A stretch of 64,000 bases of DNA from positions 21,117-85,116 of the forward strand of contig CAIOPG010000006.1 in the NCBI GenBank assembly GCA_903860135.1, in the 5' to 3' direction. The notes under the pieces were generated by a model. That model was not told where the DNA came from. It did not search any database and saw only the letters and a list, made by a program, of their open reading frames with translations. Shown here piece by piece: positions 4,294-56,436 of this stretch (within the stretch, counting starts at the first letter, position 1; every line of letters begins with the position of its first letter). A program made the position numbers and the translations under genes. The stretch is from Candidatus Omnitrophota bacterium. GTDB taxonomy: Bacteria > Omnitrophota > Gorgyraeia > Zapsychrales > Fredricksoniimonadaceae.

Positions 4294-4909
4294 ATTTATT
4301 TCCGGGCTTTCTTCAAATGAACGCAAGATACTTACGGTCGCGTCCTTGTTTGTTCTTTTTGCTCTTTTCGACAGGCTTCTGGTGGGGCCTTCGTTGGGCC
4401 GGATGAAAGAACTCGACGAAAGCATCGCCAAAGAAGAAGATACTGTCCGCAGGAATCTTCGTTTTCTGGGTTACAAGGAGCGCATTGTCGGGCAAGCGGC
4501 CGCTTTCCGTGATTTCTATACGCAAGAGGTGCGCAGTGAAGATGAGGTTATTGCGGATTTCCTGAAAAAGATGGAAGGCATGGGATCGCAGGCGCAGGTT
4601 ACCTTGTCGAAGATATCGCCTGCCGGTCAGGAAGCGCAGAAGGATTATATCAAATATTTTGTGACCATGGATTGTACGGGCAAGCTTGAGAATCTCATGA
4701 CTCTTGTCTATACGATCAACAATGCGCAGGAATTGATCAAAGTTGAGAAAGTCAGTTTTTCCGGCAATTCGCGCGGAGCTGATACCGTCCAGGCTAACCT
4801 GACGGTTTCCAAAATGATCATCGGCGTAGATCCTTCCGTCGAAGCCAAAGCCCTTGTGCATGAAAAAGAGGTTGTCAAGGCCGAGGTCAACGCGGACATG
4901 GCAAAATGA
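4283..4909 (+). CDS. GspM/PilO-like bitopic inner-membrane assembly protein
   Basis: N-terminal TM helix and about 180 aa periplasmic domain. Overlaps the upstream gene by 11 nt. Called by context; direct similarity is weak. Confidence 0.4.
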   Translation: MISKFISGLSSNERKILTVASLFVLFALFDRLLVGPSLGRMKELDESIAKEEDTVRRNLRFLGYKERIVGQAAAFRDFYTQEVRSEDEVIADFLKKMEGMGSQAQVTLSKISPAGQEAQKDYIKYFVTMDCTGKLENLMTLVYTINNAQELIKVEKVSFSGNSRGADTVQANLTVSKMIIGVDPSVEAKALVHEKEVVKAEVNADMAK

Positions 4910-5700
4910 TCCCCTTCTGGCACCGGGCTTTTGCCTTGTGCGTCCTTTTTTTATGGGTATCCTCTGTTTGTGTTTCTGCCCTTCCATTAAGCCGGGAACA
5001 GTTATTTCAGCTGGCCACCATCGCGGCGGGAGAACATCAATTCGAACGTGCCATTGAACTTTTTCAGAAGGTCATTGAGAAAGAGCCTGCGTTCGCGCCA
5101 GCTTATAACGGGATCGGGCTTGTTCATCAATCAGACGAGAATGGTTCGATGGCTGAAGCGCTCCGCTATTTCAGGCTCGCTGTTGACATAGATCCGCAAT
5201 ACATTGAAGGTTGGAATAATCTGGGGCGTACATATTATACCCAAGGGAGTTTTGTAGAAGCGGAGCAGGCTTTTTTGTCCTCACTGCGCCTGAAACCCGG
5301 GCAAACAGATATTGAATTTTCCCTGGGCTGGGATTATCTTCTGGGGCAGTCCCGTCCAGATGAGGCCATTGATTATTTTGATAAAGTGATCGCGCATCAG
5401 GATAATCCCATGATCTATTACGGGATGGGGCTGGCGAATCTCCTTAAAGGCGATCGGTTAAAAGTGATCGAGGCTGTGACGCAATTACGCCGCCACCAGC
5501 GGGAAGAACAGGCTGTCCGCCTTGAAACCATGCTCAGGGAAAATGTCCTGATCAATTCCAAACCGGGGTTGCCATTGGTGACGGGTACGAAAGAGGATGA
5601 GTCATTGTTTGATCGTCAGCTTAAAGAGCTTGAGGCTAAAGGGTATAATGGCCAGGGTAAGGAAGGTATCAAGGTTCGTCTGAAAGGACCTTTATTGTGA
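4906..5700 (+). CDS. Secreted TPR-repeat protein
   Basis: Signal peptide then TPR-like repeats (AYNGIGLVH..., GWNNLGRTYYTQGSFVEA...). ATGA overlap with the upstream gene. Confidence 0.55.
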   Translation: MIPFWHRAFALCVLFLWVSSVCVSALPLSREQLFQLATIAAGEHQFERAIELFQKVIEKEPAFAPAYNGIGLVHQSDENGSMAEALRYFRLAVDIDPQYIEGWNNLGRTYYTQGSFVEAEQAFLSSLRLKPGQTDIEFSLGWDYLLGQSRPDEAIDYFDKVIAHQDNPMIYYGMGLANLLKGDRLKVIEAVTQLRRHQREEQAVRLETMLRENVLINSKPGLPLVTGTKEDESLFDRQLKELEAKGYNGQGKEGIKVRLKGPLL

Positions 5701-6836
5701 AGAAGAACTTTATCGTCTGTGTTGCGCTGGGGACGCGTCCTGAGGCTATCAAGCTTGCGCCTGTGATCATGGCCTTGCGTGCCACCTCGGGGGTCACGGT
5801 GCGCGTGCTTGTCACGGGACAGCACCGTGTCATGATGGACGAGGCGCTGGCGGTGTTTGGCATCACCCCTGATCATGATCTGAATATTATGCGTAAAGGC
5901 CAGGCCCTGTTTGATGTCACCGCACGTATCCTTCAGGGGGTGCCGCGCGTCCTGGCGCAGGAACCGGTTGACCTGATGGTCGTTCAGGGGGACACGGCGA
6001 CCACCTTTGCCTGTGCCCTGGCGGCGTATTATCACCGTATCCCGGTGGCGCATGTTGAGGCGGGGTTACGGACGGGAGATAAATACAGGCCTTTTCCTGA
6101 AGAAGTAAATCGGCGTTTGACCGGTGTCCTAGCAGACCTTCATTTTCCGCCAACGCCGCAAGCAGAGCAGGCACTCTTGCGCGAAGGGGTTGCCCGTCAG
6201 CGGGTGATCATGACCGGCAATACGGTGGTCGATGCGCTTCGCCAGGCGGCCGTGGCCAAACAAGGTTTTACGCATCCGCTATTGAAGACACTCGATGCGT
6301 CTGGCCGCAAGCTGGTGCTGGTGACCTTGCATCGGCGGGAGAGTTTCGGTGATGGGTTGCGCCAGGTCCTGCTGGCCTTGCGGGATATCAGCGTACTGCC
6401 CGGCGTGGATGTGGTGTATCCGGTGCATTTGAATCCGCAGGTGCGCGCGCAGGTCAAGGAAACGCTGGCCGGCGGGAAGGTGCATCTCCTGGAACCTTTG
6501 ACGTATGATCAATTTATTCTTTTGATGAAGAAAGCGCGCGTGATCGTGACGGATTCAGGCGGTATTCAGGAAGAGGCTTGCGCGTTAAGAAAGCCGGTGC
6601 TTATCACCCGTGAGACAACGGAACGCCCGGAGGCTGTCGCGTCGGGGTTTGCGGAACTGCTTGGGTTTGACCGCCCCCGCATTACGGCTGCCGCTGAGCG
6701 ACTCCTGACAGATGAAAAATATTACCGTGAACGCACGCGCCATGTGAATCCTTTCGGTGACGGAAAAGCGTCTGTACGTATCGCCAAGGCGTGTTTGAGT
6801 TACCTTAAAGAAAATCAATCCCGAGGTAAAATATGA
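5697..6836 (+). CDS. wecB: UDP-N-acetylglucosamine 2-epimerase (non-hydrolysing)
   Basis: Motifs VALGTRPEAIKLAPV, VTGQHR, HVEAGLRT, DSGGIQEE. GTG start overlaps the TPR gene stop (GTGA). Confidence 0.9.
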   Translation: MKKNFIVCVALGTRPEAIKLAPVIMALRATSGVTVRVLVTGQHRVMMDEALAVFGITPDHDLNIMRKGQALFDVTARILQGVPRVLAQEPVDLMVVQGDTATTFACALAAYYHRIPVAHVEAGLRTGDKYRPFPEEVNRRLTGVLADLHFPPTPQAEQALLREGVARQRVIMTGNTVVDALRQAAVAKQGFTHPLLKTLDASGRKLVLVTLHRRESFGDGLRQVLLALRDISVLPGVDVVYPVHLNPQVRAQVKETLAGGKVHLLEPLTYDQFILLMKKARVIVTDSGGIQEEACALRKPVLITRETTERPEAVASGFAELLGFDRPRITAAAERLLTDEKYYRERTRHVNPFGDGKASVRIAKACLSYLKENQSRGKI

Positions 6837-7528
6837 TATCCATTGTCGTTCCTGCGTATAACGAAGAAGAGGTTATTGTGCGTTTCCTGGAAGCATGTGT
6901 CCGGGACATCCGGCGCGACCTGCCTTTTGAGATCGTGGTCGTCAATGACGGCAGCCGTGATAATACGCGTGAACTGGTGCGCGGGTTTACGGCCAAGTAC
7001 GCGTTCATCCGTCTCGTGGACCACGAGGTCAACCGTGGCCTGGGGAAGGCACTGGAAACCGGCATCGCGGCGGCGCGCGGGGATGTTATTGTCACCATGG
7101 ATTCAGACCTGACCCATCCGCCGGCCATGATCCGTGAATTGGCAGCCGGCCTCAAGGATGCGGATATCTGCATCGCATCACGTTATGTGAAAGGCGGCGG
7201 CATGAAGGATGTCCCTGCCTGGCGCGTGTGGGTCAGCCGTTTGGCGAACTATCTGTTCGATCTGATCTTCTGGACGAACATCAAGGATCTTTCTTCCGGT
7301 TTCAAGGCATACCGCGCCCAACATCTGAAGAAGGCGCCGATCATGTCCAACGGATTCGAGTGCCAGATGGAGATCATGCTTTATTTTATCAAGAACAAAC
7401 TGCGTTCGCGTGAAATCCCGCTCATGCTCAAGAACCGTGAATTTGGCACGTCCAAGTTCCAGTTTGTCAAGATGGGGATGAAGTATGTGCGCAGCCTCAA
7501 GCGTTTCCTCGTCTACCGCTGGTCATGA
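6833..7528 (+). CDS. GT2 polyprenyl-phosphate sugar synthase (DPM1/ArnC/GtrB-like)
   Basis: Motifs ISIVVPAYNEEE, VVNDGSRDNT, DSDLTHPP. ATGA overlap with wecB. Confidence 0.85.
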   Translation: MISIVVPAYNEEEVIVRFLEACVRDIRRDLPFEIVVVNDGSRDNTRELVRGFTAKYAFIRLVDHEVNRGLGKALETGIAAARGDVIVTMDSDLTHPPAMIRELAAGLKDADICIASRYVKGGGMKDVPAWRVWVSRLANYLFDLIFWTNIKDLSSGFKAYRAQHLKKAPIMSNGFECQMEIMLYFIKNKLRSREIPLMLKNREFGTSKFQFVKMGMKYVRSLKRFLVYRWS

Positions 7529-7529
7529 T

Positions 7530-9182
7530 ATGAACCGGCCTGTTTTTTCATGGTTGACGGTGAGATCTTTTCAGATCGGGCTTATTGCCCTCGGGTTGGT
7601 GTTGCGCTGCATTCATTACGTCGAGAACCGCTCGTTCTGGCAGGATGAGCTATGCCTGGCGCTGAGCATTGTCAACCGTTCGTTCACGGAAATATTCCAT
7701 AACACCCTTCTTTTTCCTGATTTTGCCCAAGCACCGCTGTTGTTTCAATTCATGGTAAAGATCTTTGCCGGTGTGTTCGGCAACAATGAAATGGCACTCC
7801 GGTTTTTTCCGTTTGTGACCGGGGTCGCCGCGCTTTTCCTTGCCCGGCGTTTTTTTAATCGCCTGCTGGCACCCATCCCTGCCACCCTGGCGCTAGGCCT
7901 TTTCGCCCTGGCCGAACCGCTTGTTTATTTTTCAGCAGAACTCAAACCGTACGGCGTTGATGTTTTTGCGGCGTTGTTGGTGTATGAAATGTTTTTTGCC
8001 TTGAAGGAACGCTGGACATTGCGGCATTTGGCTGTTTTTATGGCGGGTGGAGCCTTGGTGATCTGGCTGTCGAATGCCATGCTCTTTATTCTTGCCGGAG
8101 CAGGGCTTGTGTTCGGCCTTGATCATCTGAAGCGGCAGGAATGGTCTAAAGTGCGTCAGCTGGCGATGGCTTATGGTCTATGGCTGGTTAGTTTTTTAAT
8201 CTTGTACAAGGTTTCGTTGAGCGGGATGCTCAATCATGACCTGGTGAGGAACTGGCGTCTGGCAGGCGGGTTTTCGCCCGAACCTGCGTTCTCGTTGGGC
8301 TGGCTGGTGTGGATCGCCAAGGCTTTTCTGGATATGTTCCGTTCACCCTTAGGGCTCGGCTGGACGGGGTTGATGGCGGTCTTCTTCTTCTGCGGTTGCT
8401 GGTTTATTTATCGCCGGGACAGGTTGCTTCTGTGGCTATTAATGGCACCGCTCTTGCTGGTGTTGTCGGCTGGTGCTTTCGACAAGTACCCCTTCTTTGA
8501 ACGACTAGTTCTTTTCCTTGTGCCCGCCGTGCTTGTCATCCTAGCTGAGGGTGTCTGTGGCGTTGCTTTTTCCAGGGTCTGGCAGGGGCGGGCCTGGGGG
8601 TCATGGATCGTTATAGCCGCTGTCCTGTGGTATCCTGTGTCGGCGGCGGCCTGGCAGGCGGTGCATCCGCGCGGGCATGAAGATAACCGTGCGGCCATGC
8701 AGTACCTGACAGATCATTACCGCCCAGGTGACATGGTGGCGATAAGCCCTCAAGCCCAGTATCCATTCTGGTATTACAGCCAGCGCATGGGGCTCACCAG
8801 CCGTTTGCCGATGCATCCGGCGGGGGCATCGGGAGAGCGCGTGACACCCGTGATCCAGCTGTTTCCTGATATTGTGCCTGAATCTGGGCAGGAGATGCTC
8901 GCGTTGCGCCAGACCCTCAGTGTGTATGATGCCGCCGGTTATTATCGTTCTTTCCGGCTGGCTGGGCGCTCGAGTGCCCCTTTGTTTGTCCCCGCGGCAT
9001 CGCCCGCGATCCTCAAAGGCATGGGCCGGGTATGGGTCTTCTTGTCGCATCACAATAATGCCCGTTACCCGTTATTTGTGGATCAGGTGTTTTCACGTGC
9101 CGGAGAGCGGCTGGATTACTTCGAACGGCCTGGTGTTTGTGTTGGCCTTTATGACGTTCCTTTGGCCGATAAGAAAAAGTAA
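7530..9182 (+). CDS. Polytopic GT-C glycosyltransferase of the ArnT/PMT (COG1807-like) family with a C-terminal periplasmic domain
   Basis: More than 10 predicted TM helices. A QDE motif lies in the first loop after TM1. Sits 1 nt after the GT2 stop. ATG at the MNRP codon was chosen over the upstream in-frame ATG at 7485, which overlaps the GT2 gene. Confidence 0.6.
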   Translation: MNRPVFSWLTVRSFQIGLIALGLVLRCIHYVENRSFWQDELCLALSIVNRSFTEIFHNTLLFPDFAQAPLLFQFMVKIFAGVFGNNEMALRFFPFVTGVAALFLARRFFNRLLAPIPATLALGLFALAEPLVYFSAELKPYGVDVFAALLVYEMFFALKERWTLRHLAVFMAGGALVIWLSNAMLFILAGAGLVFGLDHLKRQEWSKVRQLAMAYGLWLVSFLILYKVSLSGMLNHDLVRNWRLAGGFSPEPAFSLGWLVWIAKAFLDMFRSPLGLGWTGLMAVFFFCGCWFIYRRDRLLLWLLMAPLLLVLSAGAFDKYPFFERLVLFLVPAVLVILAEGVCGVAFSRVWQGRAWGSWIVIAAVLWYPVSAAAWQAVHPRGHEDNRAAMQYLTDHYRPGDMVAISPQAQYPFWYYSQRMGLTSRLPMHPAGASGERVTPVIQLFPDIVPESGQEMLALRQTLSVYDAAGYYRSFRLAGRSSAPLFVPAASPAILKGMGRVWVFLSHHNNARYPLFVDQVFSRAGERLDYFERPGVCVGLYDVPLADKKK

Positions 9183-9261: not shown

Positions 9262-9290
9262 TTGAAAACCCCATTAGTATATGGTATCTT
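9262..9290 (+). promoter_or_regulatory. Putative sigma70 promoter with an extended -10: TTGAAA, 17-nt spacer, TGgTATCTT
   Basis: -35 TTGAAA at 9262-9267. TGnTATCTT at 9282-9290. Contains the recurrent TATATGnTAT(C/A)TT motif. Confidence 0.35.
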
Positions 9291-9307
9291 TTCCTTTGTG
9301 AAGAAAG

Positions 9308-9414
9308 TCTAAGGGCAAACTACTTGAAAAAGTAGGGCGCAAAGCCGTGAGCCTGAACCCGTCGTGTTGCGGGAAGGTTGTCTGGTTGCCGATGTGAGTA
9401 CGTTAACTCACGGC
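9308..9414 (+). promoter_or_regulatory. c-di-GMP-I (GEMM) riboswitch aptamer candidate
   Basis: AAGGGCAAACuacuuGAAAAAaguagGGCGCAAAGCCgugaGCCUGAACC...GUUGCCGAUG closely parallels the Vibrio Vc2 aptamer GGGCAAACcauucGAAAgagugGGACGCAAAGCCuccgGCCUAAACC...GUUACCGAUGG. A GNRA-type hairpin is present. The outer stem gccgugag/cucacggc closes the element. Confidence 0.6.
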
Positions 9415-9446
9415 AAAACCCTTCGATCTTTTCGAAGGGTTTTTTC
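9415..9446 (+). terminator. Intrinsic terminator serving as the riboswitch expression platform
   Basis: Stem cccttcga/tcgaaggg (9419-9426 and 9432-9439), 5-nt loop, then a run of six T. Lies 54 nt upstream of the 9500 start codon. Confidence 0.7.
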
Positions 9447-9499
9447 ATTTCAGGGGGTTTCCCTGAGGTGGCGCCCTGCATGCATAGGAGGTCTGGCAT

Positions 9500-11140
9500 A
9501 TGGGGCGTTATTTATCGATAACCTTTGCGGCTACAGTCGCAATTATTTCTTTATTTCCTTTACATAATGTTGCGGCGAGGGAAGATATTCCTATGATGAT
9601 GCCGCAGGAACAACCCATGATGCCATTCCCTTATCAAATGCCCGTTAATCCTGGTGTGCCTGTGCCGGCAACGGGGTCTGTTGTGCCGTTGCCCGTGCCT
9701 GTGTTGCCCAAGGGGGATGCCCTGGTTGCCTGGATGGCGTCTAATGTCAGTTCCAAGACAGGCATGTTTTTCAGTTTTCAGGTCTTACCTGAAGAAAAAG
9801 CCGAGATCTACGGTGCCATGGGCGAGGCTTCTTCTGTGCCCGGGATCGTTGAACGCACCATTGTCGAAGAAGGGCTGGATATTTACGATGGCGCTGTCGG
9901 GCAGATCGCGTTGACCGTTGCCGGCGGGGAGGATAAATTAGCAGTGGCCAGGCATCAACTGGATGTGTACTGGTCAGGAAAATTGGAGAGCCTGATCAGT
10001 ATCCGGGCAGGGTATCCTAATTATAATTTTGTTTATGATCCCAAAGATCCGGAGGTCGTGACGTCGTTGCTGACAGACGAGGGCCGGCGCGGATTTATTT
10101 TTCGTATCATCAATGCCAATGGCAACTACCTGGTGCGGGATCCCTTGGACGGCAAGGAACGGATGGCGGGTTTCCCGGAAGCACCGGATCTACACTGGGA
10201 AGACTGGAAGCCGGTTGCCGGAGAGAATGCCTGGATCGTGATCGCGGCCATGCAGTTGTATCACAAAGAGTATTATAAAGCGGATGTGGATCAATACGTT
10301 GCGCCTGAAGGACCTGTCGAACTGCGCCTTGCCGAAGAATTGGCGCGTGCGGCCATGGTCCTGCAATCGGAGACCGGCGGCATAAGGATGGCACCGATAG
10401 GGACGTACCGTGAGAATGAATTTTATTCAACGTCCACCCAGGGCCAGTGGTGGTACAACCAGATTTCGACAGAGAATAATCTTTCCTGGTACAGCGCGTT
10501 CCGGATGCTGTACCGTGTGACCAGCAAAGAGATCTATCTCCAGGCGATGCAGAAGATGGCAGGTTTCTTCAAGCAGGTTTATGATCCGGTAACGCAGACT
10601 TTTTATCAGGGGATGACCTATAAAGCAGGTGTCTGGCAGGTGAACAGCTCGAATTTTGCGGTGGATGTGCAGACCTGGGGTATTTTATCGCTCGGCGCGG
10701 CTACCATTGAAGACTGGTTCGGAGAGGGCGTTGCCTATTCATTCTGGGCGAAGGCGCGGGAATATTCGGGCACCTGTAATGATCAAGGCTTATTGATGGG
10801 CGTGGGGTATACCAAAGAAAAAGGCCGTGTTTCTGTGGAGTGGAGCGCAGGGGCGATCATGGCGGCGCGTGAACTGGCGGTATTCTATCGTAATTCCCAT
10901 CGTGAACTGGCGCAGGCCGCGGGGCACGATGCGGAGCAGATGCGTGTCGGCATGGAATTACTGCGCCGCGACCTCCCGGGAGGCCAGTCTGCTTATGCCT
11001 ATTCATCCAAACGCGGCTGGATCCCTTTTGGCTGGAATTCGCATGACCCGCGTGTCGTCAGCCTGGCGTCGACCGGTTGGATGTTCTTTGTTGACAAGAA
11101 ATTTAATCCTTTTTGGCTCGATGGCAAAGGCCAGGACTGA
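9500..11140 (+). CDS. Secreted hypothetical protein with a Pro/Met-rich linker; possibly an (alpha/alpha)-barrel polysaccharide-active enzyme (weak)
   Basis: Signal peptide MGRYLSITFAATVAIISLFPLHNVAA. AGGAGG RBS. Trp/Tyr-rich motifs (WWYNQISTENNLSWY, AWIVIAAMQLY). No confident family assignment. Confidence 0.7.
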   Translation: MGRYLSITFAATVAIISLFPLHNVAAREDIPMMMPQEQPMMPFPYQMPVNPGVPVPATGSVVPLPVPVLPKGDALVAWMASNVSSKTGMFFSFQVLPEEKAEIYGAMGEASSVPGIVERTIVEEGLDIYDGAVGQIALTVAGGEDKLAVARHQLDVYWSGKLESLISIRAGYPNYNFVYDPKDPEVVTSLLTDEGRRGFIFRIINANGNYLVRDPLDGKERMAGFPEAPDLHWEDWKPVAGENAWIVIAAMQLYHKEYYKADVDQYVAPEGPVELRLAEELARAAMVLQSETGGIRMAPIGTYRENEFYSTSTQGQWWYNQISTENNLSWYSAFRMLYRVTSKEIYLQAMQKMAGFFKQVYDPVTQTFYQGMTYKAGVWQVNSSNFAVDVQTWGILSLGAATIEDWFGEGVAYSFWAKAREYSGTCNDQGLLMGVGYTKEKGRVSVEWSAGAIMAARELAVFYRNSHRELAQAAGHDAEQMRVGMELLRRDLPGGQSAYAYSSKRGWIPFGWNSHDPRVVSLASTGWMFFVDKKFNPFWLDGKGQD

Positions 11141-11186: not shown

Positions 11187-11216
11187 TTGGTACATTTGAT
11201 ATTTATATGTTATCTT
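11187..11216 (+). promoter_or_regulatory. Putative extended -10 promoter (TGtTATCTT) for paralog A
   Basis: TATATGTTATCTT at 11204-11216. Weak -35 TTGGTA. Same motif as at 9282, 46170 and 54716. Confidence 0.3.
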
Positions 11217-11258: not shown

Positions 11259-13466
11259 TTGAATATAAGAGTGATAGCGCACAGATGCTTGATGCTTTTT
11301 TTGATGCTGACTTTAGCGGCGTCAGATGTGCGTGTCTATGCGCAGGGAGTTCCCCCACCCGGCACCCGCCTGGCCTTGAGCCCTGTTTTCGCGCCGCCGC
11401 TACTCAAGGGCATCAAGGTGTTCCGCAACGATCCTTTTCGTTTTGATTTCATTTTGGATAAGGGGGATGTCCATCAACCGCTGCCCAGCGAACTTGAAAT
11501 AAAGCGCCTGATCAAATACTTCCTCGCTTCTTTGACGGTGCCCGAGAAAGATTTGTGGGTCAATTTAAGCCCTTATGAAAAAGACCGCATTGTGCCCGAA
11601 GCCTTTGGCCAGACCGAAATGGGGCGTGACTTACTGGCTCAAGACTACATTCTCAAACAGATAACAGCGTCAGTGATTTATCCTGATGAAAAAGTCGGCA
11701 AGGAATTTTGGTCTAAAGTCTATGCCGAAGCTCAGAAACGCTACGGCACCACCGACATCCCCGTCGACACTTTCAACAAAGTCTGGATCACCCCCGCTAA
11801 AGCCACCGTCTACGAACACCAAGACGCCGCCTATGTTGTCGAATCCAGGTTAAAGGTCATGTTGGAGTCCGATTATAAAGCCGCTATAGAAAATAAGGAA
11901 TTCGCACGTAGGGGCGGGTCCGTGACCCGCCCTATTTTATTAAATACGCCCCCAGCGTCACCCGCCCCCGCCGCAGCGTGGGGCGGGCATGGGAGGGGGG
12001 ATGACATCGCCAAACAAGTCCTCCGCGACGTCATCATCCCTATCCTCAACAAAGAAGTCAACGAAGGCCAAAACTTCGCCACCCTGCGCCAGGTCTACAA
12101 TTCCCTTATCCTTGCCACTTGGTATAAGCGTAAAGTCAAAACCAGCATCATGGGCAAGGCGTACGTCGATCAGAAGAAAGTTTCTGGCATTGACATCGCC
12201 GACAAGAACGAAAAAGAAAAGATCTGGTCTCAATATGTTGAAGCTTTCAAGAGGGGTGCTTTTAATCTGATCAAGGAAGAGAAAGACACGACGACTCAAG
12301 AAATGATCCCGCGGCAGTATTTTTCCGGTGGGGCGGATATGTCGATGGAGGTTTTTGAGGTAACAGATGCGGCCATGCCAGCAGAGGTAAATATTGATAA
12401 TTGCAGTATCGTAAATGTTGATGGGGGTATGCTGTTAGTGAATTCCGGTCTATCTAATCGCAAATGGGTAACAACTGATTTATTTGAACACAATCCACGG
12501 AAGTTTATGTATTCTGTAAAAATGTCTGGCCTTGCCAGGCTATTAAAACCACCAGCACAAGGCGATCCAATTTCGTATTCACTTGCTTTGATCAGTGATA
12601 GTTATTTGAAAACATTTAATCGAGGTGGTGGTGGCAATGTTGGATTAGTCTTTGATTTTGCGGATGAGGATGTTCTGGCAATTTTGGCATCGATGAACGA
12701 TATCGCGGCCTTTGATAAGACAGAGGAGACGCAACGTGAATTCATTAAAAAACAATTAAAACGTGATCCTAGTAATGTTATGTATCAAACTATTGTTGAC
12801 AATAGTCCTCCTAGGCAGCTTGCTATTGTGCCTGAAGAATTGATTAGGGCTTCAATCAAGGCAGGAAATAAGAATAATGAAGTAATTGTTAAGAATAATT
12901 TAACTCTGCAACCTAAAGCAATTATCTTGATTGTAAGGTGTCAGGGAGGATCACGTTTGTTTCGGGAAGATGTCGATGCCTTAAAGGTTAATCCAATGTT
13001 AAGTGAGGTCTATTCTGCAATGACAGCTGGGAAATTACCAGTTGTTATTGTCGGTGAAAATGGTTCCCCATTGAAGACTGCTAGGAGAATCTTTAAGCAT
13101 ATGTTTAGGGATCTTCAGGAAACAAGACCGTTCTTTTTTGAAAAGAAGTCTGGCCCATCGCCGGCAAAGTCCGGGTTTATAGGATGGATCGGTGTGTTCG
13201 TGAAGCAAAATCCTTCTGCTATTACACGTATAGATCGTGGCCAGAAGAATAGTGACAATGCCGAGAAGCTTGGCGGTATCGACCTTGATCCGGCCAAGAT
13301 CGACTTAAGTACAAAGAATTCCGGCGGCGAAATTGCGTTCAACCTCGACCCCGCGATGCTCGCCCGTATGCAGCATGCTTCTGGGATTTCGCCTGTTATT
13401 GTCAGTGTGCACCCGATGGAAAGCCTTTCGGCATTTCTGGGGATTGTGAAGCCGGGAGGGCGGTAG
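11259..13466 (+). CDS. Secreted protein of an uncharacterised paralogous family (paralog A, 735 aa)
   Basis: Signal peptide ending VYAQ. A roughly 300-aa N-terminal domain is highly similar to the 54826 gene (LIKYFLASLT, EEDLWVNLSPYE, GTTDIPVDTFNKVWIT, LKVMLESDY, EVNEGQNFA, PR.YFSGG). The last about 40 aa also match (DPAMLARMQ / DPIMVAEFQ). The central and C-terminal portions are AT-rich. TTG start; GTG at 11271 or ATG at 11292 are alternatives. Confidence 0.8.
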   Translation: MNIRVIAHRCLMLFLMLTLAASDVRVYAQGVPPPGTRLALSPVFAPPLLKGIKVFRNDPFRFDFILDKGDVHQPLPSELEIKRLIKYFLASLTVPEKDLWVNLSPYEKDRIVPEAFGQTEMGRDLLAQDYILKQITASVIYPDEKVGKEFWSKVYAEAQKRYGTTDIPVDTFNKVWITPAKATVYEHQDAAYVVESRLKVMLESDYKAAIENKEFARRGGSVTRPILLNTPPASPAPAAAWGGHGRGDDIAKQVLRDVIIPILNKEVNEGQNFATLRQVYNSLILATWYKRKVKTSIMGKAYVDQKKVSGIDIADKNEKEKIWSQYVEAFKRGAFNLIKEEKDTTTQEMIPRQYFSGGADMSMEVFEVTDAAMPAEVNIDNCSIVNVDGGMLLVNSGLSNRKWVTTDLFEHNPRKFMYSVKMSGLARLLKPPAQGDPISYSLALISDSYLKTFNRGGGGNVGLVFDFADEDVLAILASMNDIAAFDKTEETQREFIKKQLKRDPSNVMYQTIVDNSPPRQLAIVPEELIRASIKAGNKNNEVIVKNNLTLQPKAIILIVRCQGGSRLFREDVDALKVNPMLSEVYSAMTAGKLPVVIVGENGSPLKTARRIFKHMFRDLQETRPFFFEKKSGPSPAKSGFIGWIGVFVKQNPSAITRIDRGQKNSDNAEKLGGIDLDPAKIDLSTKNSGGEIAFNLDPAMLARMQHASGISPVIVSVHPMESLSAFLGIVKPGGR

Positions 13467-13591: not shown

Positions 13592-13664
13592 GGGCCTCTA
13601 GCTCATCTGGTAGAGCAAGTGACTCTTAATCACTTGGTACCGAGTTCGACTCTCGGGAGGCCCA
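13592..13664 (+). tRNA. tRNA-Lys (anticodon CTT)
   Basis: Cloverleaf folded by hand: acceptor GGGCCTC/GAGGCCC, D-stem GCTC/GAGC, anticodon stem AGTGA/TCACT with loop CTCTTAA, T-stem CCGAG/CTCGG with TTCGACT loop, discriminator A. Length 73 nt; CCA is not encoded. Confidence 0.85.
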
Positions 13665-46179: not shown

Positions 46180-46351
46180 CTTATAGCCGATAAAGGTAAA
46201 CCCGGGGAAACCCGGGGACACAAAGCGACAGACCTAATGTGCGCCATCGGGTAGTTGGGTGAAGGTGTTGATGGGGTTTTGTGGTTGGCGTAAGATGGTG
46301 GCTGCGTTGCCGAAGCGCGAGGGGAGATTCCCCAGCTTTTATCGGCTATAG
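46180..46351 (+). promoter_or_regulatory. Second c-di-GMP-I (GEMM)-like structured RNA candidate, with no obvious downstream gene
   Basis: GGUAAACccgggGAAAcccgggGACACAAAGCgacagaCCUAAu...CGGGUAGuUgGG...GUUGAUGG parallels the Vc2 motif blocks. A 15-bp outer stem pairs cttatagccgataaa with tttatcggctataag. The insertion is larger than in the canonical aptamer. Confidence 0.45.
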
Positions 46352-46363
46352 TTGATCTTGAAA

Positions 46364-46394
46364 TAAAAAAGGGAGCCGTTTGGCTCCCTTTTTT
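46364..46394. terminator. Bidirectional intrinsic terminator (A-run, GC stem, T-run)
   Basis: aaaaaaGGGAGCCgtttGGCTCCCtttttt. Ends the + strand structured-RNA unit and the convergent - strand ompA/LysM gene. Confidence 0.75.
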
Positions 46395-46412
46395 GTGGTC
46401 AGGAATAATATT

Positions 46413-47423
46413 TTATTCGATCGGGATAATGATAACCGTGCCCTTTTTCAGCTTGTTGGGATTCTTGATGCGGTTCTGGTTGATCTCATAAAGATATTTC
46501 CAGCGGTTGCCGTTGCCCATCTCATTCTTGGCGATCTTCCAGAGGGAATCATTGGGCTGAATCGTGTATTCACGTGTTGAAACATTCGGAGCGGACTCCA
46601 GGTTTTCTTTCTGCTCCATCGTGAATTTGTTTGGATCCTGGTTTTCAACAACAGCATCGGCCGGGATCTGGTCGGCGGGGACATTGAATTCCTCGACTTC
46701 GGCGATCATGAACTGGGCGTTTCTGTCTTTCTGCATGCCGGCCAGATCTTTTACCGGGGCCACAGCATCGAGCTTGCCGCGGGAAACGATCTTGATGCGT
46801 TCTTCGGCGATGCCACTGCGCAACATATAACCCTTGACGGCATCACTGCGTTTCTTGCCCAGCTTGAGGTTGTATTCATCTGAACCGCGCGCATCGCAAT
46901 TGCCTGTAATAAGGATGGATGCTTCGGGATTTTTCTCGAGCGTCTTTACCGCTTTGCTCAGGATAGGGATGTGGTCATCGCGCAATTCCGCTTTGTTGTA
47001 ATCAAAGTAAATTTTGACATTCCGGATGATCTTTTTAATGAGCAGCGATGCTTTGGGAGCAGCTGCCTGGGGTTCCACCGGTTTGACTTCCTCATTGTTC
47101 TGTCCATCATTGGCTTGGTAGTCATAGATCACTTTAAGTACATAAACGTAGCCACGGTTGCCCCAGTCTTTCTTGACTGAACCAGCCTGTTTGGGCCACC
47201 ACCAGAAACCGCCGCGGGCATCCTTCACCGGAGCCGGTAAGGCATCGGTGGGCCACCAGCTGAAGCGTTGCTGAAGGACCTTTAAATCACCGTCGCGCTT
47301 TGCCTCGCGCGCCGCCTTGGTAACAAACTGCGCATGGGCGGTGGTTGGCAGTGTCAGTACGGCTGCAAAAACCGTCAGGCATACCAATAAAACATTGCGG
47401 GAAAAACTGGAACTTTTGTTCAT
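46413..47423 (-). CDS. OmpA-family protein with a C-terminal LysM domain
   Basis: Signal peptide MNKSSSFSRNVLLVCLTVFAAVLTLPTTAHA. OmpA_C motif NCDARGSDEYNLKLGKKRSDAVKGYM. LysM (YTIQPNDSLWKIA...GTVIIIP). The start is chosen at the MNKSSS codon. Confidence 0.8.
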   Translation of the reverse strand: MNKSSSFSRNVLLVCLTVFAAVLTLPTTAHAQFVTKAAREAKRDGDLKVLQQRFSWWPTDALPAPVKDARGGFWWWPKQAGSVKKDWGNRGYVYVLKVIYDYQANDGQNNEEVKPVEPQAAAPKASLLIKKIIRNVKIYFDYNKAELRDDHIPILSKAVKTLEKNPEASILITGNCDARGSDEYNLKLGKKRSDAVKGYMLRSGIAEERIKIVSRGKLDAVAPVKDLAGMQKDRNAQFMIAEVEEFNVPADQIPADAVVENQDPNKFTMEQKENLESAPNVSTREYTIQPNDSLWKIAKNEMGNGNRWKYLYEINQNRIKNPNKLKKGTVIIIPIE

Positions 47424-47524
47424 AAGAACCCCTTTGATGATATTTAAAATATAAGATAGGTTTGATAATATCATATTTTCAAGAAAGCGGAATAAAAGTT
47501 TTGGTTTTGTGGTATAAGAGGAGT

Positions 47525-48061
47525 ATGGATTTTCAACAAGCATGGGAAGAAACCCTGAAAAATACACAGATCGTGCGCCGGCGTGTTTCCTCTTTACATA
47601 CGTTCGACGATACCCGTGTGCCGTATATGTTTTTATCCCCTTCTTTAATCAACGACGGGGATACGGTTGTGCGTAAAGGGGAAGTGGTGGTGCAGAAGCC
47701 GTCGTTGATCCTTCCTCCCAATATGCCCCGTTTTGACGGTTTTGATTTCGGGCAGGAAGCGGATGCGGATCAGGGGGCGGTCGTCAGTTTTCTCATGATG
47801 CGCGGCATATCTTTCCCTTCGATGAAATACAACAATACAACGCATTCCCTTGATGTTTTTGAGGGTGGGATTGACCGTGCGGTGTCATTCTTTGCCAATC
47901 AACTTGAGCGTGAGGAAAATGTGTCCTGCGGCCTTGTCACGGGTCATGAAGAAACCTGGCCTTTTTCCATCCTTATTTTTATTTGTGCCCAGGTCGCGCG
48001 CAATAGTGAATTTGACCTTAATCGCCTGATGGACGATTATCGCCGCCATCATCCAGACTAA
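47525..48061 (+). CDS. Hypothetical cytoplasmic protein
   Basis: ORF with an AGAGGAG RBS. No recognisable motifs. Confidence 0.4.
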   Translation: MDFQQAWEETLKNTQIVRRRVSSLHTFDDTRVPYMFLSPSLINDGDTVVRKGEVVVQKPSLILPPNMPRFDGFDFGQEADADQGAVVSFLMMRGISFPSMKYNNTTHSLDVFEGGIDRAVSFFANQLEREENVSCGLVTGHEETWPFSILIFICAQVARNSEFDLNRLMDDYRRHHPD

Positions 48062-54724: not shown

Positions 54725-54825
54725 GTTTTCGTCATTATTTTCTCAAATTAGATTAGTTGTCATTCGCCCAAAAAAATTTGGCTGAAAGAAATTTTCTTTC
54801 AAGTTATTTAATAAAAGGGGAAGAT

Positions 54826-56436
54826 ATGGTACAAAAAACGCTAACCTTTCGCTGGATCTCAATCTGGGTTTTGGTGAGTTTTCTGGCCACCGCCGTGATC
54901 CCGCCCAAAGTGTACGCGCAGGCACTGAACCTGCCGGCGCCCGGGGCTATGGTGGGGTTGACCCCGGCGTATGTGCCGATCCTGATGAAGGGCGTGCGGG
55001 TGCATCCCGAGAATCCGCTTCTTTTTGATTTTATTGTGGACAGCGGGAAATCAAATTTTAAAGCAGAAAGCCCGGCGTTCAAGGCGGAGTCACAGAAGCT
55101 CATCAAGTATTTCTTGGCGTCGTTGACCATCAAGGAAGAAGATCTTTGGGTTAATTTAAGCCCGTATGAAAACAACCGCATCATCCCGCAGGTACTGGGC
55201 AAGACCGAGATGGGCCGCGATATGCTGGCGCAGGATTATATCCTCAAGCAATTGACCGCTTCGCTTATATATCCCGAGAAGGACCTGGGCAAGGCGTTCT
55301 GGAACCGGATCTACACCAAAGCCAAGGAACAGTTTGGCACAACCGATATCCCGGTCGATACCTTTAACAAAGTCTGGATTACCTCCGACAAGGCAAAAGT
55401 CTTTGAACGCAACAATGTCGCTTATATCGTCGGCGCGCACCTGAAAGTCATGCTCGAATCCGATTATCAAGCTGCGCAGGCTGTTGGCGTGCGTACAGGT
55501 GATCCTGTTATCACACCCGCCCCCGCCGCAGTGTGGAGAGGGCAAGGGAGGGGGGCGTCAGAAGAACTTGCCAAACAGGTCATCCGCGACGTCGTCATCC
55601 CCGAGATCGAAAAAGAAGTCAACGAAGGCCAGAATTTTGCAATGCTGCGCCAGATGTTCTATTCGATGATCCTCGCCTCTTGGTACAAGCTCGCTTTGAA
55701 AGATGCCCTGTTGAATCAGGTGTACAGTAATAAAGATAAAACCAGCGGGGTTCTCTCCGATGACCCGGCGGTAGCCACCAAGATCTACGAACAGTACCTG
55801 CAGGCGTATAAGAAAGGCGTGTTCGATTACATCAAAGAAGATATGGACGCTGTCACCCATGACCCTCTGCCCAGAAAGTATTTCTCGGGGGGGGTCGTTG
55901 ATTTGGCTAGCAAGGTGGAAGTTGAACGTCAGTCGGGTCGTTTGAATCTGACGGAAAATACCCAGCTCATATCTTCAGTATTCCTTTTGATGGTAAAGTT
56001 TTCGTCGGTGTTGGGAGGGCGTCTTTCATTGGCCAAACATTTGTCTTTGGTTGCGCTGATGACGGGTCTGTTCGCATGTCAGCCTGCTGTCCAGCCTCCG
56101 GCTGATCTTTTCTATGATTTAAGTAATTCCGACTTGATTACTTACCCTATTCAACTTGCGCCTGCCGATGCTACAAGGGTCTTTGTTCCCTTCAAGGTGG
56201 ATCATTCTGCGGATGTCGGTGGTATCGCGCTCAATGGGAAGCTGATGGACTTGGATGTGGCCAAAGACGGGAAGGGCGTTGAGATGAAATTCGATCCGAT
56301 CATGGTGGCGGAGTTTCAGCGGGGAAATTTTACGGGGGTTGAGGGGGTTATCCTCAATATTGTTCCGATGGTCAGCCCCTTATCGTTGTTGGGTCTGGAT
56401 AAAGCTTCGGTGGAGTTGGTGTCGGCCAAAGGGTGA
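54826..56436 (+). CDS. Secreted protein of the same uncharacterised paralogous family (paralog B, 559 aa)
   Basis: Signal peptide ending VYAQA. N-terminal about 300 aa are highly similar to the 11259 gene, with nucleotide identity around 70-80% in conserved blocks. The C-terminal tail is also similar. The gene is 31 nt upstream of tpsA. Confidence 0.8.
   Translation: MVQKTLTFRWISIWVLVSFLATAVIPPKVYAQALNLPAPGAMVGLTPAYVPILMKGVRVHPENPLLFDFIVDSGKSNFKAESPAFKAESQKLIKYFLASLTIKEEDLWVNLSPYENNRIIPQVLGKTEMGRDMLAQDYILKQLTASLIYPEKDLGKAFWNRIYTKAKEQFGTTDIPVDTFNKVWITSDKAKVFERNNVAYIVGAHLKVMLESDYQAAQAVGVRTGDPVITPAPAAVWRGQGRGASEELAKQVIRDVVIPEIEKEVNEGQNFAMLRQMFYSMILASWYKLALKDALLNQVYSNKDKTSGVLSDDPAVATKIYEQYLQAYKKGVFDYIKEDMDAVTHDPLPRKYFSGGVVDLASKVEVERQSGRLNLTENTQLISSVFLLMVKFSSVLGGRLSLAKHLSLVALMTGLFACQPAVQPPADLFYDLSNSDLITYPIQLAPADATRVFVPFKVDHSADVGGIALNGKLMDLDVAKDGKGVEMKFDPIMVAEFQRGNFTGVEGVILNIVPMVSPLSLLGLDKASVELVSAKG

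Follow-up and report, generated by a model that had tools for sequence, protein, structure and literature searches.

The Leader and Its Gene

The subject here is a leader RNA and the gene behind it in a 64-kb stretch of DNA, called the window in what follows, from a Candidatus Omnitrophota bacterium. The leader carries a riboswitch aptamer of the class I cyclic di-GMP (c-di-GMP) type, known as c-di-GMP-I or GEMM-I, at 9304-9393. Behind it come an intrinsic terminator (9415-9449), a Shine-Dalgarno (SD) sequence (AGGAGG, 9486-9491, 8 nucleotides before the start codon) and an open reading frame (ORF) of 546 amino acids, which runs from the ATG at 9500 to 11140; the ribosome binding site and the ORF are as an earlier note, made by reading the sequence, had described them. 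All coordinates are positions in the window, everything in the riboswitch locus lies on the plus strand, and L-numbers stand for homologous loci. The Omnitrophota, a phylum without cultured members, have very small cells, and c-di-GMP riboswitches are textbook elements. Because the class is so familiar, and any Rfam-based annotation would flag the element, the core finding is unsurprising; what is new is the conserved target gene and, possibly, a second, translational layer of control.

The identification of the aptamer is straightforward. When the whole window was scanned with the Rfam covariance models (cmscan), three matches exceeded their gathering scores, and one of them is RF01051 (c-di-GMP-I) at 9304-9393, with 65.6 bits and an E value of 1.3e-10 (gathering score, 35 bits). 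The alignment takes in the entire model (positions 1-87 of 87), only one of its pairs is non-canonical, and a covariance model of our own gives the same segment 70.4 bits. The alignment places the helix P1a at G9315-C9316 with G9339-C9340. P2 is the hairpin CUACUU-GAAA-AAGUAG (9320-9325/9330-9335), whose GAAA loop occupies 9326-9329, and P3 (9343-9361/9370-9387) holds a receptor-like CCUGAA (9352-9357) opposite GAAGG (9373-9377). In a type 1 GEMM the GNRA tetraloop of P2 docks into a receptor in P3. The two strands here resemble the 11-nucleotide tetraloop receptor, CCUAAG/UAUGG in its standard form, without being identical to it. The conserved blocks listed in the earlier note are all present: GGGCAAAC at 9313-9320, GGGCGCAAAGCC at 9335-9346, GCCUGAACC at 9351-9359 and GUUGCCGAUG at 9385-9394. 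Its aptamer segment, 9308-9414, needs correction at the 3' limit: the aptamer itself extends only to about 9393, and a hairpin of its own occupies 9394-9411. The residues that contact the ligand in the Vc2 aptamer, G20, A47 and C92 (PMC6140456), correspond in the alignment to 9314, 9341 and 9389, and all three are present. The whole leader also folds far better than its shuffled versions (z -4.5).

What does the gene encode? Searches of Pfam, NCBIfam and the PDB sequences gave no match for the 546-residue protein, and its homologs from named sources are nearly all annotated as "hypothetical protein" in metagenome-assembled genomes (MAGs) of Candidatus Omnitrophota or Omnitrophica. The nearest genome locus, L001, belongs to an Omnitrophota MAG and its protein is 72% identical. 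A confident AlphaFold2 model computed from an alignment of 26 sequences (pLDDT 84, pTM 0.84) consists of a hydrophobic, signal-peptide-like N-terminal helix, a disordered linker rich in Pro and Met (residues 25-69) and an (alpha/alpha)6 barrel; the helix bears out the earlier suggestion that the target is a secreted protein. The closest folds are (alpha/alpha)6-barrel polysaccharide hydrolases, namely MmpH (7qsj), GH8, GH76, GH15 and PssZ (6r2m), at an identity of only about 7-15%. To judge from the model, the protein is probably a secreted polysaccharide-active enzyme.

Conservation of the Aptamer

Relatives of the locus support the aptamer. A metagenome scan with an alignment of the 546-residue family yielded 75 loci, and 62 of them have at least 250 nucleotides of upstream sequence. 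In 46 of these 62 the aptamer lies immediately 5' of the homolog, on the same strand. The 16 loci that are devoid of it are, with one exception, those of the most distant homologs (40-48% identity), and no other Rfam riboswitch was found upstream of 15 more distant homolog loci that are aptamer-free. The aptamer is present in L001, too, and in 7/7 further close relatives obtained by exact-protein look-up. When 20 loci were sampled with Rfam, RF01051 exceeded its gathering score in 14, and two loci of the group here called clade B matched the related family RF03167 instead.

Our covariance model was built on 20 distinct aptamers located by pattern search. In its hand-drawn structure the inner part of P3 is misregistered for most sequences (the pair 116-203 never pairs), and RNAalifold was used for that part. 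Applied to a MAFFT alignment of 21 relatives, RNAalifold finds P1a, P2 and P3 again, and 15 of the 25 pairs show double-sided changes. Among 41 sequences aligned to the model, 85.8% of the cells pair against 70.9% in shuffles, a figure that none of 500 shuffles attains; ten pairs show double changes, and a slide by a single column collapses the signal, which peaks at zero slide. The three helices are thus supported across about 40 homologous loci. The earlier note had proposed both the family match and the covariation as checks on its c-di-GMP-I assignment, and with a significant full-length match and covarying helices in hand the assignment stands. On the sequence evidence, 9304-9393 is a genuine c-di-GMP-I riboswitch aptamer.

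From the Aptamer to the Start Codon

A promoter-like element precedes the aptamer at 9262-9290. It consists of TTGAAA as the -35 box, a spacer of 17 nucleotides and a TG-extended TATCTT as the -10 box; the assignment is a match to the sigma-70-like consensus, and it implies a transcription start near 9297. The arrangement CTTGAAAAC...TG(T/G)TATCTTT is repeated upstream of the aptamer in relatives.

Behind the aptamer, a linker hairpin (GUGAGU-ACGUUA-ACUCAC, 9394-9411) leads to the terminator. It can be extended by pairing UUGCCG (9386-9391) with CGGCAA (9411-9416), which would sequester C92, and an equivalent hairpin of variable sequence is present in all terminator-class relatives. The terminator itself, AAAACCCUUCGA, loop UCUUU and UCGAAGGGUUUU followed by the U-run, has a stem of 12 base pairs (9415-9426/9432-9443), 5 of them G-C, with the T-run reaching 9445 and a stability of about -21 kcal/mol. 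It was foreseen in the earlier note, and a strong terminator lies between aptamer and start codon in 18/18 terminator-class loci tested. Its core, CCCUUYGA...UCRAAGGG, is conserved in sequence as well as in structure and recurs in L077-L081. Directly after the U-run comes another hairpin, CAUUUCAGGG-GGUUU-CCCUGAGGUG, of 10 base pairs (9446-9470), whose structure is maintained in L001 and L003 despite differences in sequence.

Other relatives are built differently. In clade B, about 25 loci (including L013:2115-2196 and L017:2821-2904), the AUG follows one nucleotide after the end of the aptamer model (...GGUUACCGAAA-A-AUG), and there is neither a recognisable SD nor a terminator; translation would start there on RNA within or abutting the folded aptamer. 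In L082 the SD sits inside a terminator-like hairpin.

Direction of the Transcriptional Switch

Does the ligand turn this gene on or off? The aptamer, which ends at 9393, and the terminator, which starts at 9415, share no nucleotides and can therefore coexist; indeed, a fold in which the aptamer is enforced keeps the terminator. This is the design of Cd1, an OFF switch demonstrated by experiment that controls flagellar genes: its aptamer and its terminator can be present together, and an antiterminator competes with both (PMC9262584). In the pilM ON switch, by contrast, formation of the one precludes the other (PMC9262584). From the architecture and the relatives we infer the OFF direction. 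A class I c-di-GMP aptamer in the leader of a secreted (alpha/alpha)6-barrel gene, acting most likely as a Cd1-type transcriptional OFF switch, is the reading preferred here, with a probability of roughly 0.6.

The mechanism would hinge on the strand CGGCAAAACCCUUCGAU (9411-9427), which contains the 5' arm of the terminator and is proposed as the antiterminator partner. It is complementary to three strands of the aptamer: UUGCCG (9386-9391), GAAGGUU (9373-9379) and GUC-U-AAGGG (9307-9315, including G20). Binding of c-di-GMP would lock three parts into the aptamer, namely the 5' strand with G20, P3, and the 3' strand with C92; 9415-9426 could then pair with 9432-9443 as the terminator, and transcription would end before the ORF. 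In the ligand-free RNA, 9411-9427 would pair with aptamer strands as it emerges and delay the terminator, so that RNA polymerase would read through. The net prediction is that high c-di-GMP represses the secreted polysaccharide-active enzyme.

Folds of growing transcripts are consistent with such a course. In the minimum free energy (MFE) structures of transcripts that end at 9427-9432, G9307-G9315 pairs with C9419-U9427 and 9386-9390 with 9412-9416; from 9438 on, the 3' arm is present and the terminator prevails. The terminator 5' arm pairs with the strands that contain G20 and C92 in truncated folds of the window, L001, L003 and L004 alike. Another possible antiterminator joins GAAGGUU (9373-9379) to AACCCUUC (9417-9424). 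The clearest case is the sister subclade (L004, L077-L081), in which the 3' strand of P3, AAGGCUGUCUGGUUG, is complementary to CGACCAGAC-CCUU, a segment that overlaps the base and 5' arm of the terminator; this duplex has a dG of -10 to -21 kcal/mol and a z down to -5.0, the ranges for L077-L081 being -10.6 to -21 and -1.4 to -5.0.

Several points weigh against the preferred reading. In the subclade of the window P1 is short and in a non-canonical register, shifted by one, and the antiterminator duplexes are no better than those of shuffles (z -0.4 to -0.5). Two alternative pairings fit the window about equally, which leaves the exact antiterminator ambiguous, and the one that uses the 5' strand is compatible with the secondary structure of the aptamer, conflicting only with G19-G21 and the weak P1. 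The MFE structure of the full-length leader always contains the terminator, so that the model depends on co-transcriptional kinetics. A motif search of the 64-kb window returned no GGDEF, EAL or HD-GYP gene. Finally, the enzyme activity of the product is read from the fold alone, at a sequence identity of about 10-15%.

Two further pairings were considered for a general antiterminator and set aside. A helix of the leader or 5' strand with the terminator 5' arm is significant only in L035 and L016, not in the window, and a partnership of the P2 loop and 3' strand with that arm (AAAGGGU/ACCCUUU), seen in loci of the L016 type, is not general. A leader motif, GCUCUUU(U/A)AGA, occurs 5-15 nucleotides upstream of the aptamer in L016 (2675-2695), L009, L012, L020, L039, L011, L019 and L031; it resembles the terminator 5' arm (CCCUUUGAA) and pairs with the arm in some truncated folds.

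Could the same aptamer and the same ligand switch the gene on? Members of GEMM-I with either sign are known, pilM being ON and Cd1 OFF (PMC9262584), and a helix of the 5' strand with the terminator 5' arm could serve as an extended P1 stabilised by the ligand: 9307-9314/9420-9427 still forms when the Rfam aptamer pairs are enforced, and it encloses the aptamer much as a long P1 would. The same helix, however, pairs G20 (9314) and the 5' strand of P1 (9307-9309), both of which are required in the bound state. The absence of shared nucleotides argues in the same direction, since ON designs like that of pilM make aptamer and terminator mutually exclusive (PMC9262584), as does the antiterminator of L077-L081, which uses the 3' strand of P3 and is incompatible with a folded aptamer. 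The logic of the box described in the next section favours OFF too, and an ON switch is considered unlikely, though it is the best placed of the alternatives.

A Candidate Translational Layer

Between the terminator and the SD lies a conserved box, GCGCCCUGC (9471-9479), a candidate element directed against the initiation region. The motif occurs once on the plus strand of the window, and the loci of clade A share it in the form GCGCCCUG(C), between terminator and SD and 26-32 nucleotides before the AUG. The box is the exact reverse complement of an aptamer segment, GUAGGGCGC (9332-9340), which runs from the 3' end of P2 through the junction into the 3' strand of P1a. The helix of the two (9332-9340/9471-9479) has 9 base pairs, and in nine clade A loci its dG is -11.6 to -21 with a z of -1.9 to -5.9.

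The box has a second partner as well: of 13 loci, 12 have it paired with the SD or the AUG region in the local MFE structure. In the window, L001 and L003 this partner is the UG of the start codon with GGGGCGU (9501-9508 in the window); in L004, L006, L018 and L077-L081 it is a G-rich stretch near the SD, and in L028 it is AUGGGCAGG. In three loci, box and aptamer segment have changed together. L081 has GGACGC with GCGUCC, and its initiation-region partner has changed too, to GCAGGA. L018 has GGGCUC with GGGCCC, together with a 9-nucleotide copy of the aptamer sequence, AGGGCUCAA, just before the AUG, and L028 has GGCAC with GUGCC.

How would these pairings work? The simplest reading is an anti-anti-SD arrangement, which on this model would again be OFF. 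In read-through mRNA free of ligand, the box would pair with the aptamer segment 9332-9340 and leave the initiation region open; with the aptamer locked by the ligand, it would pair with 9501-9508 and close that region. Predicted energies allow for such a toggle. Folds of the full leader give -91.0 kcal/mol with the box-aptamer helix forced, -89.6 with the aptamer enforced and -91.7 for the MFE; the two states are nearly isoenergetic, and forcing the helix costs almost nothing. With the helix in place, 9486-9505 goes from a predicted accessibility of 0.29 to one of 0.42, a modest gain that tells against the proposal. So does the small sample behind the covariation count, in which 92.6% of cells are paired, three cells are double-changed (reached by 4 of 500 shuffles) and the slide control is clear, but the box was chosen by complementarity in the four of the 13 loci that lie outside clade A. 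A switch with two OFF layers, the terminator and a box that toggles between the aptamer segment and the start codon or SD, embedded in a lineage-wide regulon of Omnitrophota for a secreted (alpha/alpha)6 glycan-active enzyme, in which copies with A or C at position 20 are perhaps shifted in ligand, is for now a tentative picture and, taken as a whole, less likely than not.

One may go further and suppose that control is mainly translational, exerted by the hairpin of box and initiation region, with the terminator a leaky attenuator largely independent of the ligand. The antiterminator signal is weak in the subclade of the window, the complementarity of the box is strong and conserved, and many relatives, those of clade B, combine the lack of a terminator with an AUG that abuts the aptamer. 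On the other side, the stem of the terminator is conserved in sequence in every terminator-class locus examined, and the antiterminator of the sister subclade is clear. This view is held to be improbable, more so than an ON switch.

Ligand Specificity

GEMM-I aptamers were all annotated as c-di-GMP sensors at first, and some of them later proved to sense cyclic GMP-AMP (cGAMP) (PMC6140456, PMC9262584). Is the ligand here a different one, 3',3'-cGAMP for instance, or does a bispecific aptamer respond to more than c-di-GMP? The history of the class lends the idea some weight, as do orthologous Omnitrophota loci with A or C at position 20. The aptamer of the window lacks the signature of cGAMP sensing (GEMM-Ib), which is A20: it has G at 9314 along with A47 and C92, and wild-type Vc2, with its G20, binds c-di-GMP with a picomolar dissociation constant and cGAMP at only ~10 uM (PMC6140456). 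Another or an additional ligand is accordingly rated as quite improbable for this copy.

Across 41 relatives, A47 and C92 are invariant (41/41), and position 20 is G in 34. Orthologs with A20 are found at L016:2696-2787, L009:2707-2797, L012:2674-2757, L011:2661-2751 and in L035, and those with C20 at L020:2654-2743 and L039:2693-2780; all of these copies front the same gene family. By their sequences, such copies may have switched ligand.

The label c-di-GMP-I-GGC, attached to the model RF03167 that the clade B loci and a second aptamer of the window score on, was rejected for them. The GGC variant is defined by a G in place of A47 (CGCGAA against CGCAAA in the model consensus); both aptamers of the window read CGCAAAG, and because A47 is retained in the second aptamer and in clade B, the name does not apply to either.

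That the match arose by chance, or that the aptamer has decayed and lost its function, is a negligible prospect, effectively refuted already by the comparison of sequences, given the score and E value of the match and an aptamer that recurs at the same position, with covariation, in dozens of divergent loci with proteins of only 48-72% identity.

Relation to Known Systems

The aptamer has the features of Vc2 and of RF01051 at large: a match over the full length of the model, P1a, P2 and P3, a GAAA loop together with a receptor-like internal loop in P3, and G20, A47 and C92. It differs from Vc2 in its Omnitrophota host, its short P1 shifted by one register, its P3 receptor (CCUGAA/GAAGG), its expression platform and its target gene. 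With Cd1 of Clostridioides difficile it has in common a separate terminator that can coexist with the aptamer, a proposed antiterminator between an aptamer strand and the terminator 5' arm, and a ligand that is predicted to favour termination (PMC9262584). In contrast to Cd1, the direction is inferred, the antiterminator is ambiguous and an extra element, the box with its initiation-region partner, follows the terminator. The GEMM-Ib riboswitches of Geobacter (pilM, Gs1761) have the same fold, belong to the same Rfam clan and act on extracellular or surface targets; they are ON switches with A20, whereas the window has G20.

A dual mode of action brings to mind lysC, thiM, ribB and btuB of E. 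coli, where one aptamer affects both the completion of the transcript and the initiation of translation, the transcriptional arm being Rho or RNase E as a consequence of blocked translation (PMC5499598). Here, unlike in E. coli, alternative pairings with the aptamer would govern the intrinsic terminator on the one hand and the separate box on the other.

A literature search on riboswitches in Omnitrophota found no paper. The interest of the locus lies in the lineage-wide link to a secreted enzyme, in the diversity of platforms, in the variation at position 20 and in the candidate dual control. A conserved hypothetical family nearly restricted to Omnitrophota gains its first functional handle, a tie to second-messenger control, and the predicted logic is the expected one: an enzyme that degrades matrix or envelope would be repressed at high c-di-GMP. 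At least three platforms serve a single aptamer-gene pair (a terminator, an AUG that abuts the aptamer, and an SD enclosed in a terminator-like hairpin), and together with the variation at position 20 they provide a natural series in which the evolution of platforms and of specificity can be followed. Simple in vitro assays could address the possible combination of terminator and box.

Neighbouring Genes and c-di-GMP Enzymes

A cluster immediately upstream on the same strand (4906-9182, plus strand) encodes a TPR protein, a UDP-GlcNAc 2-epimerase, a GT2 glycosyltransferase and a PMT_2-like membrane protein of 565 amino acids. Its relation to glycans fits a polysaccharide-related role for the enzyme under riboswitch control.

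The next gene downstream (11259-13466, plus strand) encodes a protein of 735 amino acids; its family, whose members have an N-terminal module in common, is hugely expanded in Omnitrophota. The earlier note had placed it in an operon with the 546-residue gene; its presence is confirmed, co-regulation is no more than a possibility and the word operon is too strong. No terminator separates the two ORFs, and the genes may be co-transcribed. Ahead of the second, at about 11188-11216, there is a promoter-like TTGGTA-N17-TATCTT of the same type as that at 9262-9290. Relatives of the 735-residue protein follow the 546-residue homolog in only 3 of about 80 loci (L033, L056, L057), which rules this gene out as a conserved operon partner. 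In the closest relative, L001, a member of its family lies upstream of the homolog instead, and in other relatives the next gene is an unrelated one, for a transketolase, a response regulator, PFOR or a tRNA. The two genes are thus not stably linked, and the (alpha/alpha)6 gene by itself makes up the conserved regulated unit.

The 735-residue protein has no Pfam or NCBIfam match. Its first ~370 residues form a module that recurs in over 3300 proteins, almost all of them apparently of Omnitrophota origin, and one of them is encoded elsewhere in the window (54757-56436, plus strand). The module is fused to many different C-terminal enzyme domains, among them acetyltransferase, methyltransferase, radical SAM, kinase and Nudix, with several paralogs per genome; it may serve to secrete or target a varied set of cargo domains.

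Genes with domains or motifs of c-di-GMP turnover enzymes lie next to the riboswitch in relatives. Directly upstream of it, L016 has a PAS-PAS-GAF-GGDEF-EAL gene confirmed by Pfam, and L009, L012, L020 and L039 have large ORFs with a GGDEF motif in the same place, found by motif search only. To judge by these genes, c-di-GMP metabolism exists in the lineage. In the L009 copy a G replaces the guanine-recognising Asp in GHxxGD.

Two close relatives have the riboswitch gene directly after a 23S-5S rRNA operon and ahead of a tRNA: L077 (1-943 and 3123-3211) and L081 (1-1343 and 3484-3572). In the window, a tRNA (13592-13664) comes soon after the pair of 546- and 735-residue genes.

A Second Aptamer in the Window

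The window holds another GEMM-I aptamer at about 46185-46315 (plus strand), which scores 61 bits on RF03167 and 56.9 bits on our own model. It has residues of the G20/A47/C92 type and an insert of ~60 nucleotides in P3. A small hairpin with a U-run follows (46321-46345), and a long-range helix of 17 base pairs (46181-46197/46337-46353) encloses the aptamer. No plus-strand ORF comes after it. A bidirectional terminator at about 46367-46396 is common to its transcript and to a convergent OmpA/LysM gene (46413-47567, minus strand). With these features the element (46181-46400) resembles the ORF-less merRNA of Bdellovibrio (PMC3627812); alternatively, it could be an antisense transcript gated by a riboswitch.

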